Source: Batkoa obscura (lineage: Eukaryota). From it: a stretch of 64,000 bases of DNA. Positions 3,174 to 19,759 of the stretch are shown in pieces. Each line of letters starts with the position of its first letter. Positions within the stretch are counted from its first letter, which is position 1. The notes below the pieces were generated by a model. The model saw only the letters and a list, made by a program, of their open reading frames with translations. It ran no database searches and had not been told where the DNA came from. The position numbers and the translations under genes were made by a program. The stretch lies in contig JASVEC010000025.1 of NCBI GenBank assembly GCA_030770535.1, forward strand, positions 1-64,000, written 5' to 3'.

Positions 3174-4163
3174 ATATCTTAATTTTTATTTCTATTTTAT
3201 CAACTTTTTACTTTTTCATTTTTTCATATATACCTATTACAAAGAAGTAAACAGCGACTTTATCTCAAGTAAAAGGAAATGTTTACAAATGTACATAGTA
3301 AATAGATAGATCATAACGACTGGTAATAAAGATAAAGAACCTAGCCCTCGCCAGCCAGATGCCTTTTTTGATTTTAGCTTCTCAGGATTTTAAAAAAAGT
3401 ATATTCGGGCTTTATCACAAGCGTACCATTAGCTAAGTAATAAAACTAGGAAGTTTATATTTTTAATTCGTATTTTTAAAGCTACATATATATGGCATTT
3501 TCTATGAAACAGTATAATTTTAAAAAAACCATTTTCATCTGTTTTCAGTAGTCAATATTTAATAATTAAACTTGTTTAAAAACTTACTAATATTTTTCTA
3601 ATATATTCAGTTTTTAAAGTATCAGGTTTTATTTTACCAAATTTCTAGTTCATTACTAATGGATAAATGAAGATGTACTAAAAGTGATTAAGTACAAAAG
3701 CAGTGAATTAAAAAGTGAAAAAAACATTGAGAGATTTTTAATACACAAAAATAAAATTTAAAAATTTATCTATACAAAACTTAACTTTGTTTTAGAAATT
3801 ATAAATATAACATTTTTGAATGAATAGTTTTTAAATTTGACTTTTTTCTGAAATTATGCAGTTTTGCATGAAATCTAATTTTTTCGATGGTAGCTAAAAA
3901 AGGCTATTTTGAACCATGAGAACTAAAAGGTTAGTGTACTAAAATTTAGCTAAAAAGGCTGGAAGCAAAATAATCTTCATTACTCCAAATTCACACTCAA
4001 ACTTTGGGGTTTTATAAGCAATATTTAATCTAATTCTATTTTTATAATAAACATTGAAAAACAGTACTATAAATACTCGAAAAGAACTATTGAAATAGAT
4101 ATCAAAAAACTAATAACTTTTATTTAATATCAGATAATAAATACACTATAATATAATCACAAA

Positions 4164-4817
4164 ATGAACAAACTCATCATTAGTCTTACTATCCTCTCTT
4201 TTATCACTGCTGCTCCTACTTTAGTTAAACGTGAAGCTGAAGGTCTTGGTTTAGGAGTAGGTTTAGGCTTAGGCTTAGGCTTAGGACGTAAAGGACATGG
4301 ATCTGGATCTGGATCTGGATCTGGATCTGGTCATGGATCTGGATCATCTGGCTATGGTTCAGGCTCAGGTTCAGGTTCATCTGGTCATGGATCAAATTCA
4401 GGCCTTGGATTAGGAGTAGGTTTAGGCTTAGGTTTAGGCTTAGGAGGTAATGGACATGGATCTGGATCTGGATCTGGTCATGGATCTGGATCATCTGGCT
4501 ATGGTTCAGGCTCAGGTTCAGGTTCATCTGGTCATGGATCAAATTCAGGCCTTGGATTAGGAGTAGGTTTAGGCTTAGGTTTAGGCTTAGGAGGTAATGG
4601 ACATACATCTGGTTACGGTTCTGGTTCTGGTTCTGGTTCATCAGGATCAGGATCGGGTTACGGATCAGGCTCTTCAGGCTCTTCAGGCTCTTCAGGCTAC
4701 GGTTCAGGTTCAGGTCGTGGTGGCCTTGATTTAGGTTTAGGCTTAGGAGCCGGTGTAGGTATTGGAAAGGGTGGTGTTGGATTAGGTGTTGGAACTGGTC
4801 TAGGGCTTAACCTTTAA
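4164..4817 (+). CDS. Secreted Gly/Ser-rich (Gly-X)n protein with internal ~49-aa duplication
   Basis: Same leader as 2218; GHGSG...GLGGN module present twice. Confidence 0.92.
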   Translation: MNKLIISLTILSFITAAPTLVKREAEGLGLGVGLGLGLGLGRKGHGSGSGSGSGSGHGSGSSGYGSGSGSGSSGHGSNSGLGLGVGLGLGLGLGGNGHGSGSGSGHGSGSSGYGSGSGSGSSGHGSNSGLGLGVGLGLGLGLGGNGHTSGYGSGSGSGSSGSGSGYGSGSSGSSGSSGYGSGSGRGGLDLGLGLGAGVGIGKGGVGLGVGTGLGLNL

Positions 4818-6051: not shown

Positions 6052-6474
6052 TCAATATCCGTACCCTTTATCGTATCCTGAGCCATATCCTGAGTTATAT
6101 CCCGGTTTACTACCAGTACTTACTCCTACACCAGCGCCTACTCCTAATAATGGATTTCCACCTAAACCTACTCCTACACCAGCGCCTACTCCTAATAACG
6201 GCTTACCACCTAAACCTAAACCTATTCCAGCTCCTACTCCTACTCCTACTCCTCCACTGCCATTTGATCCTGAACCATGGCTTGGATTATATCCTGAACC
6301 ATATCCTGGGTTTGAGCCATATCCTGGGTTTGAGCCATATCCTGGTTTCCCTCCTAAGCCTAAGCCTAAACCTAAACCTAAACCTAATCCAAGGGTATTA
6401 GCTTCACGTTTGTTCAAAGTTGGAGCAGCGGTAATAAAAGAAGTAATAGCAAGACTAATGATGAATTTATTCAT
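6052..6474 (-). CDS. Secreted Gly-rich protein with PGYGSN repeats
   Basis: Signal peptide, NKR-EA, (GL/GV)n tracts, PGYGSN repeats. Confidence 0.9.
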   Translation of the reverse strand: MNKFIISLAITSFITAAPTLNKREANTLGLGLGLGLGLGLGGKPGYGSNPGYGSNPGYGSGYNPSHGSGSNGSGGVGVGVGAGIGLGLGGKPLLGVGAGVGVGLGGNPLLGVGAGVGVSTGSKPGYNSGYGSGYDKGYGY

Positions 6475-6698
6475 TTTAAAGTATAATTTATGTTTAATAT
6501 AATATAATATAATATAAATGTGTTTGTATTTTGTTTTTTTTTGATCGATTTATCTACATATTTATATCTTTTAATATACCTAATAAAGCCAGTAGCATAG
6601 TTTTTTAGCTTTTTATTTTTAGTTTTAGCTTTTAAGCAACTTTTAGGATCTCAAGCCATTGTCTAGTTTTGACTACTGAGTCGTAAATTTAACTGTCT

Positions 6699-8677: not shown

Positions 8678-9133
8678 TTAAAGTCGGATATTAAGTAAAT
8701 TCCCTTTGTTGTTGCTTGTACTGTATCCTGAGTTAGAACCATATCCTGAGTTATGTCCTGAGTTATGTCCTGAGTTATGTCCTGAGTTATATCCTGAGTT
8801 ATGTCCTGATTCATATTCTGGTTCACCTCCTAAACCTAAACCTAAGCTTGTACCTAAGTCTACTCCTACTCCTACTCCAAGAATATTACTTTCACGCTTA
8901 ACTAGAGCAGGATAACCTGGGTTTGATCCTGGGTTTGATCCTGGGCCATACCCTGGTTTTGAACCATGCCCTGAATTGGAATCATATTCTGGTTCACCTC
9001 CTAAACCTAAACCTAAGCCTAAATCTACACCAACTCCTACACCTAAACCGAGGGTATTAGCTTCATGCTTATTTGAAGTTGGAGCAGCAGCGACAAAAGA
9101 GAGGATAGTAAGACTAATGATGAGTTTGTTCAT
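8678..9133 (-). CDS. Secreted Gly-rich protein with two modules and an internal Kex2 site
   Basis: Signal peptide; NKH-EA-NTLGLGVGV module and LVKR-ES-NILGVGVGV module; SGHN repeats. Confidence 0.9.
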   Translation of the reverse strand: MNKLIISLTILSFVAAAPTSNKHEANTLGLGVGVGVDLGLGLGLGGEPEYDSNSGHGSKPGYGPGSNPGSNPGYPALVKRESNILGVGVGVDLGTSLGLGLGGEPEYESGHNSGYNSGHNSGHNSGHNSGYGSNSGYSTSNNKGNLLNIRL

Positions 9134-11194
9134 TTTTAAGATATGATATTAATTTAGTATGAAATAGATTTGTTTTTAATTTAATAGTTAGTTGGTAGAT
9201 TTATCACAGTATTTATATCTTTCATTATACTTAATAAAATTAAGCGATATAATTTTTTTAATTTTTTAGTTTTATTCTTAGTTTCTAATTATCCTTTAAG
9301 GCCCCAAGTTATATTTATTTTTATATACTAAATTGTATATTTAAATACCCTTTATTCCATTTATTATGGATGATATATTAAATCTCTTTCATCATTCATA
9401 TGTCTTTATAGATTTCATTTCTATATACCATTATACCACTTTTATCATATTATTTAAATGAGACTAATAGTTCAATAGTTTTATCTTCATATCATATCAT
9501 AAATATATTTAAAGTACAGCTTTATCATTCTATTTTAACATTTATTTATTTTATAATGTTTCATAGATAATTTTAACTTGCTTTAGAGGACAAGTTAATT
9601 TATTAACTAACAATTATTTTCATTCAAAAAATAAACCATTATTGAAATTTTATATGTATATTTTAATAACAAACAATATTTTAATTTCAAATATTGTTAG
9701 TTTTATATTAGATAATTACTATATTTGACTATTTCTATCAATATTGATTTTTTAACCCTTAATGCTATTTTTTTTAACGGTTTTCTAAGCTTATTTTAAC
9801 TGAACATTAGTACTTTTGTTTTATATTAACATTTGCATTGAAATCTTTTGTTTTAATTAGCATTCATATTTAATAAAATTCAAAGATTCTATTTTAGAAC
9901 CTCTAATAACTTTTTTAAAGATAATGAATGCATCAACGCTAGAAAGGGTATTAAATTTTTTTTTAAAATGGTAACTAAATTTATGTGTTATGAAAAGGTT
10001 CTAAAATATTCAAAGAATTTGCTTAAATCTTAATTAACTTTTTTATTTGATATTAATCAAACACTTGATGTTATTAATTTGAAAATTCTATTGAAATAAG
10101 TCCATTATCAAAAGAAACAGATTAAGCAAAGTTATCAATTTAAAAGATATAAAAGTTCAACAATGAGAGTATTAAAGTTGATCTTATTTTAAATGAAAAT
10201 TTCAGTTATTGTTTATAAACATGATATTATTTTAATATAAATAATAGTTTCCAATTAAGAGGTTTTTTTATTAAAATTGAATTTTATGATTTTTTTCAAA
10301 TTCAAGTTCCAACTTTTAATACCTTTTTAACAATTGATAATTTTCAAACAAAACATATCATCCAGGTGAATTATAGTAAAATAATTATTAAGTCATTAAT
10401 ATTAAAAAAAGTAATATTTATTTTCTACTAAGATATTTTAATAGAATAATAGAATCGATAACTCATAATACTATTGTCATCAAAAAGTTTAGTATCTAAG
10501 ATAAATGCTTTTGAAGCAAATAATATATTTAATAAACAGTCTTTAAATATAGTCACTATTTTTTATAGAAAAATTCTAAATGTCAACAACTTCGAAATTT
10601 TATTTTTACAAATTAAATTATTAAAATGTAATCCGGTTTATTATTCTGTTAATTCTGAATTCTAAATTGAGTGATTTTTAGGATCAAATGAATATTATGG
10701 TTCAATAAAAAAACTACGTATATTTCAAATTAGCTGTTTATTTTAAATAAAAATTTAATTTAAAATTTTAAACTTGCTACTTATTTATAAAAGCTAAAGA
10801 CCAAAAGAGAAACCGAGTATTAAAAAATGATTATCTAAATAAATTATTGAAATACATATAATAGTAACTGTTTAATTATATTATCTAGCTATTGAATTTG
10901 AATTTGAATTTTAAAATATTCTCTTTTTTGAAACTTCCTTTGAATTCAATCCCAAAATTTTTGATTCAAAAGGTTCCCATAATGTTTTAATCCAAATCAA
11001 TCAATTAGTCTGAATAGAGCTAAATCTTATTTAATTGGCTAAGATTTGTAACTAAAAGCTTAGTTCTATCCCACAACGAAAATATAAAAATATATTTCTT
11101 AGCTAAGGTTAATATGTTTATATTTAATCTAAGTTTATTCGCTCCTAAATCAAGTATATAATGTAAGTTAATTTCTTTACCTATGTTTCCATAT

Positions 11195-11272
11195 GTGATG
11201 ATACCTATTCAACCATAGAACTAATTGTATGATCATTAATGATTTCAACCTTTTACATGCATCACCAACTGA
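11195..11272 (+). ncRNA. Box C/D snoRNA, snR55/U33-like (18S Um1269 equivalent)
   Basis: Box C GTGATGA, box D CTGA; guide CATGCATCACCA pairs with 18S UGGUGGUGCAUG (one G-U); D+5 rule selects the U. Confidence 0.85.
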
Positions 11273-11420
11273 AGATTATTATGATAATCAAATACTTTAT
11301 TGATCATTTTACTAATTTAATTTTATTAGATGTTAAACACAAAGACATTATTATTGCACTGTTATAATAACTAAATGGTAAGTAATATGTTTCATTTAAA
11401 TTCAGAATAGAATGTTGGCG

Positions 11421-11504
11421 TTGATGAATGCAATTAACCATAGAACTAAGAATCTAATGAGAGCAATCACTAATGATTACAATTCAATGCATGCACCACT
11501 CTGA
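11421..11504 (+). ncRNA. Box C/D snoRNA, snR40/U32-like (18S Gm1271 equivalent)
   Basis: Box C TTGATGA, box D CTGA, terminal stem AATAGAAT..TGGC/GCCA.ATTCTATT; guide CATGCACCAC pairs with 18S GUGGUGCAUG. Confidence 0.87.
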
Positions 11505-11604
11505 GCCAGATTCTATTTATTATAAATAATTTTATTTTAAACATATATTAATATTCTTTTATTAGATGTAAGTAATAATTTCAATTCTTATTCTATTCAT
11601 CAAA

Positions 11605-11696
11605 ATGATGAAAAGATTTGAGCACTGGGCTCTGAATAGTTCTGAAGATAAGCTCTATATTCCTATCCAAAGACATTCAAACCGGATAGTTACTGA
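11605..11696 (+). ncRNA. Box C/D snoRNA, snR76-like (25S Cm2197 equivalent)
   Basis: ATGATGA, D' CTGA 11632, C' CTGAAGA, D CTGA; D' guide GAGCACTGGGC pairs with LSU GCCCAGUGCUC; GACATTCA complements adjacent UGAAUGUC. Confidence 0.88.
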
Positions 11697-11822
11697 TATT
11701 TTTATTAATATCATTAATTTTTATTGAGAATATAATTCTAATTTATACTCATTAGATTGTAAATTATAATTCAAATGTAATAAGGTAGGTATTTATTTTG
11801 ATTATTAATTTTTTAATTTTGC

Positions 11823-11897
11823 GTGATGATTGATTTTCTGTCAGTTCTGCTTCTGATGCAAGTATGAAGCTAATAAATCTCTTACCAAATTATCTGA
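11823..11897 (+). ncRNA. Box C/D snoRNA, snR61/U38-like (25S Am1133 equivalent)
   Basis: GTGATGA, D' CTGA 11853, D CTGA; guide CAGTTCTGCTT pairs with LSU AAGCAGAACUG; CTTACCAAA complements adjacent UUUGGUAAG. Confidence 0.88.
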
Positions 11898-12043
11898 TGA
11901 ATTGAATTTTTATTAACTGTTATCTTTGAATAATTTATTAATTTTCTATTATAGATATCCTAATGTATAGTTTGAAACTAAACATATAATGACTCATATA
12001 ATTCTTTAATGTAAGTATTTAGTTTAATTCTATATTAACTCAA

Positions 12044-12105
12044 ATGATGATCAATTCCGTGTTTCACCTGAAACTTTAATGATTACTAACCCCTTTTCAA
12101 CCTGA
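12044..12105 (+). ncRNA. Box C/D snoRNA with two guides (LSU UGAAACACGGA region; possible second LSU site)
   Basis: ATGATGA, D' CTGA 12068, C' ATGATTA, D CTGA; D' guide TCCGTGTTTCA; D guide CCCCTTTTCAA. Confidence 0.85.
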
Positions 12106-12476
12106 TTTTATTTAATCAATATAATTATCTAAGATAATGTATACTAATTATTGTTATTAGGTTCTACTATTGGTATACCACTAACCGACAACCTTAATAA
12201 TTGTTTAACTAGTTTATTAAAAATAAATATATTTATTGCTTATTTTTGTATATATCTATTTTCATAATTGAATCCTTACATATCTTTAATATTTCGTTTG
12301 TAAAAATAAAACCTGTTTTTTCACAGCTTTAATGATAGTGCAAAAATTCTACTCAAATGTAGCAACTGTTTAGAGGTTATTTCTAACTATTTTCATTTTT
12401 CAAGCGTAAAAATTAAACAGATTATTAACTAAATTAATAAAAAACATCTCATCAGCATGCTTGACATTCAACATAT

Positions 12477-12571: not shown

Positions 12572-13506
12572 ATATAATAAAATTGTATTAAAAATTGGTT
12601 CTAAAATATGCATAGAACTAAAAGATTTGTTGCAAATAAAAACTTATTTTTTGAATCAAAAAACTAGTTACTTACAGGAAAATGTAATACGCTAGAAGGT
12701 AGTATTAAGTTTATAGATTTTAAAAAAATAGGCAGCTATCTCTCTCTGTCCTCTAAAATAAGCTTATATTGTAAATTCAACTTGGATAAAGATAAATAGG
12801 ATTATTAATAACGTAGGCATTCATCAGGGGTTAAATCAAAAGCTAAATTAATAAGTTTGCATTTATTATTTACATAAGATAAAATTACTTTTGTGAGACT
12901 ATTTTTAAAAGTTAGTACACCTAATTTAAAGTCTTTATGGTTTTTTTTACTAAACTCAAAGCTTGGCCATGTAAATTTTTTTCTTTCCCCTCTTTTTTAT
13001 TAGATAATTTTTTTAGCATAACTTCAATAATGTATTTTAAATATGGTGAAAAGAGTTAGAAGATCATTAAAAGGAAAAAATTGGGATTCTGATTATTAGT
13101 AACAATAATGGTAGCAGTAATAGTAATAGTAATAGTAGTGTTTTTTTTTTAAAACTAAACTTTGATTTCAGTAATATAATAAAATGGGTGCATAATTCAA
13201 TCAGTAAAATTAAAAAATTGACAACTTTACGATTTTTTAAAAACTTGGCGTTGGGATTACTTGACTACAAAATTTAAAAAAAGTCAAAAATTCATCCCTA
13301 AATTAATATGATAACTACTCCAACTAACAGTTGTAATTTGGGGTGGATTCTATTTAGCAAAAGTATCCATATACAAAATTACTACTATTACATATCAATA
13401 ACCCATCCCATAAATACTCCAACTCAACTCTCATAATAATTATCAAAAAATTATTACTATTATTATTATCTAATACTTAACAACACCTACAATACAGTCT
13501 ATTAAA

Positions 13507-13902
13507 ATGAATAAATTAATCATCAATCTTACTATTCTCTCTTTTATTACCGCTGCTTCTACTTTAGTTAAACGTGAAGCTGACGGACTTGATTTAGGTT
13601 TAGGTTTGGATTTGGGCTTAGGAGGTGGCAAGCATGGCTCAGGTTCAGGTTCAGGTTCAGGTTCAGGTTATGACGTTGGATCAGGGTCAGGATCTAGTTA
13701 CGGTTCGGGCTCAGGTTCAGAATCTAGTTACGGCTCAGGATCTAACTACGGCTCGGGCTTGGGCTCAGGATCTAGCTATACTCCAGATTCTGGCCATAGT
13801 TCAGGCCATGGATATAGTCATGGCGGTTTAGGCTTAGGAGTAGGAGCTGGAAAAGGAGGACTTGGATTAGGACTTGCAGCCGGTGTTGGACTTGATCTCT
13901 AA
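13507..13902 (+). CDS. Secreted Gly/Ser-rich (Gly-X)n protein
   Basis: Same leader family (LVKR-EAD), GS tracts, C-terminal GVGLDL as in the 2218 gene. Confidence 0.9.
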   Translation: MNKLIINLTILSFITAASTLVKREADGLDLGLGLDLGLGGGKHGSGSGSGSGSGYDVGSGSGSSYGSGSGSESSYGSGSNYGSGLGSGSSYTPDSGHSSGHGYSHGGLGLGVGAGKGGLGLGLAAGVGLDL

Positions 13903-18457: not shown

Positions 18458-19759
18458 TTAATAACGGTAATGGTTTGGCTTGAATGGACCTTCTGGTTTA
18501 ATACCAAGGTATTCTGATTGAGCATTATTAAGTTGAGTTAATTTAACACCTAGTTTGGAAAGATGAGCACGAGCTACTTCTTCATCAAGATGCTTTGGAA
18601 GCATATGAACACCTAATGGATAAGAAGCATTATCAGTCCAAAGGGCAATTTGAGCAAGTACTTGATTAGAGAAAGAATTGGACATAACAAAAGATGGATG
18701 ACCAGTAGCACAAGCTAAATTAACAAGACGACCTTCAGCTAATAAAATAATATGACGACCTGATGGCATAGTATATCTATCAACTTGTGGTTTAATGTTT
18801 TCTACTGATTTAGCATTAGCTTTTAACCAAGCAACATCAATTTCAACATCAAAATGACCAATGTTACATACAATGGAATCATCTTTCATTTTTAACATAT
18901 GCTCACCAGTGATAATATCTCTATTACCAGTGGTAGTGACGAAAATGTTAGCTTCATCTACAGAAGCATCTAAAGTAGTAACTTCATAACCTTCCATGGA
19001 AGCTTGTAAAGCATTAATTGGATCGATTTCAGTAACAATAACACGAGCACCCATACCACGTAAAGCAGCAGCACAACCTTTACCTACATCACCATAACCA
19101 GCAACAATGGCTACTTTACCAGCAATCATAACATCGGTGGCACGTTTAATACCATCAATTAAAGATTCACGACAACCGTATAAGTTATCAAATTTAGATT
19201 TGGTAACAGAATCATTAACGTTAATAGCAGGAATTCTAAGTTTACCTTCTTTAAGAGCAGTATAAAGATGGTGGACACCAGTAGTAGTTTCTTCAGATAC
19301 ACCTTTACATCCTTCAAGATATTGTGGATATTTGTCGTGAATGAGCTTAGTTAAATCACCTCCATCATCTAAGATAAGATTGAAGTGCTTACCATCCTTG
19401 AAAGAGGCAAGGGTTTGTTCAATACACCAAATATATTCTTCATCGGTTTCACCTTTCCAAGCGAAAACTGGTACACCGGTAGCAGCAATAGCAGCAGCAG
19501 CATGGTCTTGAGTAGAGAAAATATTACAGGAGGACCAAGTGACTTCAGCACCAAGAGCAGTTAAAGTTTCAATTAAGACAGCAGTTTGAATGGTCATATG
19601 TAAACATCCTACAATACGAGCACCAGCCAATGGTTGGCTTTTACCGAATTTTTCACGGAGGTACATGAGACCAGGCATCTCATTTTCAGCTAATTCAATT
19701 TCTTTACGACCGAAAGCGGCGAGGGAGATATCAGCAACTTTATAGTTTTGGGTAGCCAT
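18458..19759 (-). CDS. SAH1: S-adenosylhomocysteine hydrolase
   Basis: [38 protein letters not shown]; intronless, 433 aa. Confidence 0.98.

Follow-up and report, generated by a model that had tools for sequence, protein, structure and literature searches.

A very probable non-coding host gene with one box C/D snoRNA in each of five introns in the early-diverging fungus Batkoa obscura

What is encoded between positions 9148 and 13474 of contig JASVEC010000025.1 of Batkoa obscura (assembly GCA_030770535.1), where a program-made list holds no open reading frame (ORF) of 80 codons or more? We analyzed positions 1 to 64,000 of this contig, referred to below as the window. The original prediction, made from the letters alone, had placed in this gap a non-coding, splicing-dependent host gene of an early-diverging fungus, with five introns each carrying one small nucleolar RNA (snoRNA) of the box C/D kind. 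The present analysis bears this out: removal of four of the five introns and a poly(A) tail were observed, one snoRNA was recognized by Rfam as snR61 and guides pointed to known methylation sites. A single protein, the S-adenosylhomocysteine (SAH) hydrolase encoded at 18461-19759, assigned the DNA to a fungus of the insect-infecting type, of the Entomophthorales (Zoopagomycota), with identities among the named fungal matches of 92% to Entomophthora muscae, 86% to Basidiobolus and 82% to Conidiobolus coronatus. We are highly confident that the locus is a spliced, polyadenylated non-coding host gene with one box C/D snoRNA in each of its five introns.

Positions and ends of the five consecutive introns were as predicted (Table 1). 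In order they measured 167, 188, 188, 170 and 150 nt; four began with GTAAGT and one with GTAGGT, and all five ended in TAG. The statement that they exceed the local norm two- to threefold was about right, the 31 other candidate introns of the window having a median of 68 nt in a heuristic, noisy set that includes overlapping and false calls. A detector combining 5' splice site, box C, box D and 3' splice site returned five matches over both strands of the window, all in the host gene; it gave none on the minus strand of the window and found no sixth snoRNA intron there. None of the 5000 dinucleotide shuffles made from the 1.2-kb unit produced more than two matches, and the maximum was one match in 100 shuffles of the whole window. 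The spacing was nearly constant in all five introns, with 32-42 nt from the 5' splice site to box C and 55-61 nt from box D to the 3' splice site. Boxes C, D', C' and D had been announced for each intron. C and D were indeed present in all five, snoRNA 2 having the variant box C TTGATGA, and bounded cores of 62-92 nt, but the canonical D' box CTGA was confined to introns 3-5. No signal came from RNA folding (z -1.1 to 0.3), and none is expected of C/D RNAs. The exons were short and, as in UHG/GAS5-like hosts, non-coding, with a longest ATG-initiated ORF of 16 codons in the spliced RNA and of 43 codons with intron 1 retained.

Contigs from seven sequencing runs covered part of the stretch, and those of four runs from two studies (X1-X4) were placed on the locus. 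We take these runs to be RNA because their contigs contained GT..AG joints and A-tails. Such contigs show the presence of a form, never its absence, and isoforms were not ranked by contig depth. Of the five predicted junctions, those of introns 2-5 were found; intron 1 was seen only in its retained form. For intron 2, a joint was present in X1, and exon-2-like letters stood directly ahead of 11565 in X2 and X3. Contigs covered the interior of intron 2 in none of the runs, which is to be read only alongside the joints across it. Introns 2 and 3 were both removed with AT kept between them in X1 and X2, so that the 2-nt exon is included in the spliced RNA. Forms retaining intron 3 occurred in all four runs; intron 2 was seen removed with intron 3 still in place, and the reverse form was not among the contigs, a pattern consistent with the stepwise splicing reported for neighboring snoRNA introns (PMC3596301). 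The overall order of splicing is not 5' to 3', since X4 had introns 4 and 5 removed and intron 3 retained. A-tails followed 12242 in three of the four runs (X2, X3 and X4), at a distance of 15 nt from the predicted AATAAA and at a place without a run of A in the genome. The end of the unit moves from the predicted 12230 to 12242.

Table 1. Features of the host gene locus (positions in the window; X1-X4 are the sequencing runs).
Feature	Position	Strand	Remarks
TATA-like element TATAAAA, candidate Pol II (RNA polymerase II) promoter	11083..11089	+	from the sequence only
Exon 1	11134..11162	+	11134 is the first place covered by a listed contig; 5' splice site at 11163
Intron 1 (predicted; seen only retained)	11163..11329	+	GTAAGT..CTAAT..TAG; contigs across it in 4/4 runs
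snoRNA 1, snR55/SNORD33-like	11195..11272	+	D guide 11256-11268, predicted 18S Um1269 equivalent; extra-pairing element 11210-11220
Exon 2, 48 nt	11330..11377	+	contigs join it to 11566 and to 11756
Intron 2 (spliced)	11378..11565	+	joint 11376>11565 in X1
snoRNA 2, snR40/SNORD32-like	11420..11504	+	D guide 11490-11500, predicted 18S Gm1271 equivalent; extra-pairing elements 11436-11452; terminal stem
Micro-exon AT, 2 nt, included in spliced RNA	11566..11567	+	joint 11377>11756 with AT between, X1 and X2
Intron 3 (spliced in X1, X2; retained forms in 4/4 runs)	11568..11755	+	contigs
snoRNA 3, snR76/SNORD88-like	11605..11696	+	D' guide 11620-11630, predicted 25S Cm2197 equivalent; extra-pairing element 11672-11679
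Exon 4, 29 nt	11756..11784	+	contigs
Intron 4 (spliced)	11785..11954	+	joint 11782>11953 (cut +2) in X1, X2, X4, two studies; variant joint in X3
snoRNA 4, snR61	11823..11897	+	D' guide 11842-11852, predicted 25S Am1133 equivalent; extra-pairing element 11881-11889
Exon 5, 56 nt	11955..12010	+	contigs
Intron 5 (spliced)	12011..12160	+	joint 12010>12161 in X1, X2; variant joints in X2, X3, X4
snoRNA 5, SNORD126-type	12044..12105	+	D' guide 12056-12066, predicted 25S A646 equivalent, 3 nt 5' of the U18 site; second guide 12087-12101
Last exon	12161..12242	+	AATAAA 12222-12227; poly(A) site behind 12242
Gly/Ser-rich paralogues	2206-2730, 4152-4814 (+), 6055-6549, 8681-9148 (-), 13474-13899 (+)		ORF list

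Differences between strains were concentrated outside the snoRNAs: 4 of 307 covered snoRNA positions differed as against 26 of 385 covered positions in the intron flanks (Fisher p 5e-4), a count that disregards snoRNA 2, which was not covered, together with a row that was unlisted, indels and differences in exons. Box C, box D, the CTGA D' boxes and the main guides were free of listed differences. The snoRNA bodies are under constraint.

The introns had been credited with guides complementary to conserved ribosomal RNA (rRNA). One guide per snoRNA paired convincingly, over 11-14 bp on eukaryotic ribosomal DNA (rDNA), and when the rule placing the methylated nucleotide at D/D'+5 was applied, four of the five main guides pointed at sites methylated in S. 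cerevisiae. The rDNA set comprised 79 loci with eukaryotic motifs, 26 from metagenomes and 53 from prokaryote assemblies; Rfam confirmed three of the 79 as eukaryotic rDNA. The 26 metagenome loci are from eukaryotes whose kinship to Entomophthorales is not established; they were chosen for the 18S variant predicted by guides 1 and 2 and therefore cannot test that variant. The 53 others (L027-L079) are pieces of eukaryotic rDNA picked for the target region of snoRNA 5, so the count for this snoRNA on them is circular. No locus with that region was found on viral contigs. On the rRNA of locus L008, guides 1 to 5 were equalled by 0, 7, 9, 2 and 3 of 150 shuffles each. SnoRNAs 1-4 also carried extra-pairing elements, 8-11 nt complementary to rRNA next to the target, and such "extra base-pairing" has been reported for snR55, snR40, snR76 and snR61 (PMC3116282, available part). 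For the secondary box of snoRNA 2, only the extra-pairing rows of the rDNA comparison were used. The D-side second guides of snoRNAs 3, 4 and 5 were at chance level on foreign rRNA, being equalled by 54, 135 and 66 of 150 shuffles.

Scanning with Rfam supported the assignment of snoRNA 4, which scored 55.1 bits against snosnR61 (RF00476; cut-off 45); the other four stayed below their cut-offs. SnoRNA 3 reached 25.1 bits (E 0.003) with snoR118, under the cut-off of 44, with an identical register of the D' guide and a guide duplex of 11 bp. SnoR118 belongs with the snR76/SNORD88 group, and its register supports the placement of C2197 on the rRNA sequence. Applied to guides 3 and 4, the +5 rule gave the sites of snR76 (Cm2197) and snR61 (Am1133).

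SnoRNAs 1 and 2 scored 22.8 and 24.1 bits with the SNORD33/32 model (RF00133), under its cut-off of 44, and were filed as functional equivalents of SNORD33/32 because their guides and register match. The guide duplex of snoRNA 1 measured 12-13 bp with one G-U pair, and guide plus box of snoRNA 2 were identical to the Rfam snoMe18S-Gm1358 consensus. By the +5 rule the two guides pointed to the U and the G of an 18S stretch for which mass spectrometry in S. pombe gave the fragment GGUmGGmU (PMC4605285). In yeast the equivalent Um1269 is guided by snR55 and Gm1271 by snR40, the latter through the D' guide; unlike yeast snR40, snoRNA 2 uses the box D guide for this site. The alignment of snoRNAs 1 and 2 had a z-score of 6.1, whereas the other nine snoRNA pairs did not exceed 1.5. 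The pair probably stems from an intron that was duplicated in tandem, the guide moving by 2 nt; in view of its box D use and this likeness, snoRNA 2 may be snoRNA 1 duplicated with its guide displaced rather than a true orthologue of snR40. At the place of D', introns 1 and 2 carry CTAA in lieu of the canonical CTGA. An active D' box at CTAA was judged unlikely, as it is altered in the intron 1 copy of X4 and coincides in part with a stretch that is complementary to the 18S sequence downstream of the target.

Two side observations concern these snoRNAs. The extra-pairing elements at 11210-11220 and 11436-11445 agree in predicting U at one position of 18S; most of the rDNA loci that were not selected carry G there, and the U variant occurs in the 26 metagenome loci. 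Furthermore, record 24 of X4, placed on 11239-11279, represents a second, diverged snoRNA-1-type copy with different flanks, in which the D guide region and the extra-pairing element are preserved whereas the CTAA that follows is not; it is either a paralogue or from another organism.

The guide of snoRNA 5 spans the U18 region, but its CTGA sits 3 nt further 3' than in the Rfam U18 consensus, so that the predicted target becomes the A located 3 nt 5' of Am649, directly after m1A645. An A at this register is also the target of human SNORD126, which methylates the equivalent Am1310/1323 (PMC9941101), and of Dictyostelium CD12, with Am841 beside Am844 (PMC8817022). The likeness seen to both is one of target, and since the Rfam SNORD126 model did not match snoRNA 5 at E<=10 in two scans (in one of which two same-clan overlaps were hidden), we liken it to SNORD126 by register alone. 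The duplex was a perfect 11 bp in 65 of the 79 loci, 53 of which had been picked for that very motif. No report on SNORD126 in fungi came up in literature searches aimed at it, judged in part from titles and abstracts, the equivalent mark does not appear in the available passage comparing plants, and the available parts of PMC4914119 and PMC11649923 hold nothing on the target site.

We favor A646 as the real target of snoRNA 5, with moderate confidence. A diverged U18 which would still methylate the usual A649, by way of a non-canonical D' box or a bulge, seems unlikely to us, although its best named Rfam relatives were indeed snoU18 and SNORD18, both below cut-off. The failure of the SNORD126 model to match would agree with a diverged U18, as would the fungal maps: the equivalent of A646 is unmodified in S. 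pombe, with the fragment m1AAACAmCG (PMC4605285), its methylation is not in the S. cerevisiae table, and no guide for it is in the N. crassa snoRNA table (PMC2780460, available part). However, the shifted CTGA is perfect, two of the three extra letters prolong the duplex, the U18 letters TGG at the far end of the guide are missing, and the position is truly guided in human and Dictyostelium.

As for the gene as a whole, several points weigh against the host gene reading. The runs are presumed, not recorded, to be RNA, and many contigs represent a haplotype 90-99% alike, other than that of the window. Intron 1 was retained in contigs of all four runs and its joint appeared in no listed contig. 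Pairing was assessed on rDNA of other eukaryotes, not on that of B. obscura, and Rfam detected no rRNA in the window; guides 2 and 3, taken singly, were borderline against shuffles (7/150 and 9/150), and only one of the five snoRNAs reached its Rfam gathering score. The likeness of snoRNAs 1 and 2 fell to 8/1000 when the target-pairing parts were masked, with a remainder that includes the C' box. The behavior of intron 1 might suggest mixed processing, in which four snoRNAs come from spliced introns and snoRNA 1 from a rarely spliced or unspliced 5' part by endonuclease cutting and trimming, similar to partly de-intronized yeast clusters. We consider this improbable: with GTAAGT, a branch-like CTAAT and TAG, intron 1 matches the other introns in quality, its spacings of 32 and 57 nt are like theirs, no hairpin stood out (fold z 0.23), and a joint next to a short exon 1 at the 5' end is easily lost in contigs. 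Still far less probable is that the introns are the untranslated part of a protein-coding mRNA. The 5' end is admittedly unmapped, and a deep contig of X2 touches 11130 with 116 letters that match nowhere on the stretch. But the unit ends in the poly(A) site behind 12242, 1.2 kb short of the nearest 3' ORF, which begins at 13474, the gap has no ORF of 80 codons, and a 16-letter piece of the loose letters had no above-chance match in the window. We retain the stand-alone host gene, with intron 1 predicted to be spliced as well.

Two observations concern its 5' end. The farthest-5' contig listed begins at 11134, but contigs cannot mark a transcription start. The 116 unlike letters precede the X2 match to 11130-11164 and resemble, together with it, the 5' splice site of another gene; the contig is probably a chance match rather than an upstream exon.

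Is such a gene new to fungi? The original prediction had set vertebrate hosts against the intron-less polycistrons of budding yeast, implying novelty, and thereby overlooked UHG-like hosts in Neurospora, Basidiomycota and Rhizopus (PMC2780460, PMC3596301; here and below, statements on these two papers and on PMC5824354 refer to the available parts of their texts). Luo et al. 2013 (PMC3596301) described three fungal clusters in which every snoRNA lies within an intron in Euascomycetes, Basidiomycota and Rhizopus oryzae, likened the hosts to the U22 host gene and reported that exons are small or missing and that the snoRNA introns are mobile; Liu et al. 2009 (PMC2780460) termed the N. crassa clusters UHG-/gas5-like. 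The layout of a non-coding host with one snoRNA per intron is already known in fungi, and since it is routine there, the present result is mainly the well-supported annotation of a gene overlooked by ORF callers.

The cargo is a different matter. Cluster II (snR57-snR55-snR61; PMC3596301) shares with our locus the non-coding spliced host with one box C/D snoRNA per intron, an snR55-like member ahead of snR61, tiny internal exons and an intron downstream of the tiny exon kept in partly spliced forms. In contrast to cluster II, an snR57-type guide is absent among the five, so that the order snR57-snR55-snR61 is not found, three other members are present (snR40-like, snR76-like and SNORD126-type), and the internal exon has 2 nt instead of 0; the lineage of Batkoa is not named in the available survey text. 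Cluster I (snR78-snR72; PMC3596301, PMC5824354) contains snR76 in most fungi surveyed, whereas here the snR76-like intron lies between the snR40-like and snR61 introns. Rhizopus and fission yeasts were scored as having lost snR76 from cluster I (PMC3596301), and Canzler et al. 2018 dated cluster I to the root of Ascomycota (PMC5824354). The N. crassa clusters I-V (PMC2780460) and the vertebrate UHG/SNHG1 and GAS5 genes resemble the locus as short-ORF spliced RNAs carrying intronic C/D snoRNAs; their cargo differs, and sequence homology is neither shown nor expected. The distance from 5' splice site to box C is more compact here than the 41-60 nt that predominate in N. crassa (PMC2780460).

The member set matches none of clusters I-III, but the supplements of PMC3596301 and PMC5824354 may list it, or the guide of snoRNA 5, in early-diverging fungi. 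The term "ancestral-type", used in the prediction, suits the intronic layout; with this member set, an ancestral and a reshuffled array are both possible. We would tentatively propose, without holding it the likelier case, that this is an undescribed fungal cluster of snR55-snR40-snR76-snR61-SNORD126 type. It would show the place of snR76 outside Dikarya, implying that snR76 joined cluster I late instead of being lost in Rhizopus, and would carry a fungal guide for 25S Am646, adjacent to the conserved m1A645. The Am646 mark would then be an ancient one, still present in human and Dictyostelium but gone from the model yeasts.

Intronic snoRNAs generally arise by debranching of the excised intron and trimming to a C/D core bound by Snu13, Nop56, Nop58 and fibrillarin, after which the guide pairs with its target and methylation follows. 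For the Batkoa gene, RNA polymerase II would transcribe the unit from the TATA-like element, and each excised intron would likely release its snoRNA by lariat debranching and exonucleolytic trimming to the protein-protected C/D core. The predicted outcome is D/D'+5 2'-O-methylation of 18S U1269 and G1271 and of 25S C2197, A1133 and A646 (yeast numbering), with extra pairing that would assist beside four of the five sites. The exon RNA of about 250 nt would probably be a by-product.

The locus is of comparative value, since the available texts of the snoRNA surveys name no Entomophthoromycotina and the locus combines members known from published clusters I and II. In the available main text of PMC5824354 there is no mention of Conidiobolus or Entomophthoro-, and a literature search pairing snoRNA with Entomophthorales gave, among the matches listed, a single passing mention of snoRNA. 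The predicted methylation of the A646 equivalent, lacking in yeast maps, bears on the timing of its loss in fungi, and the included 2-nt exon between two snoRNA introns is an intermediate toward the zero-length exons of yeasts.

Some minor observations remain. Two neighboring stretches of the 28S 5' domain have antisense sequences similar to the second guide of snoRNA 5, with a best fit of 10 bp or, in some rDNA variants, of 14 bp when one base is bulged. The eukaryotic 28S motif in the 53 prokaryote-assembly stretches is most likely due to contamination, and two of them (L028 and L053) contain whole eukaryotic rDNA with group I introns. A sigma-70 promoter scan was disregarded as irrelevant to a eukaryote. 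Finally, five paralogous short Gly/Ser-rich proteins with a common signal-peptide-like start flank the snoRNA host on both sides.

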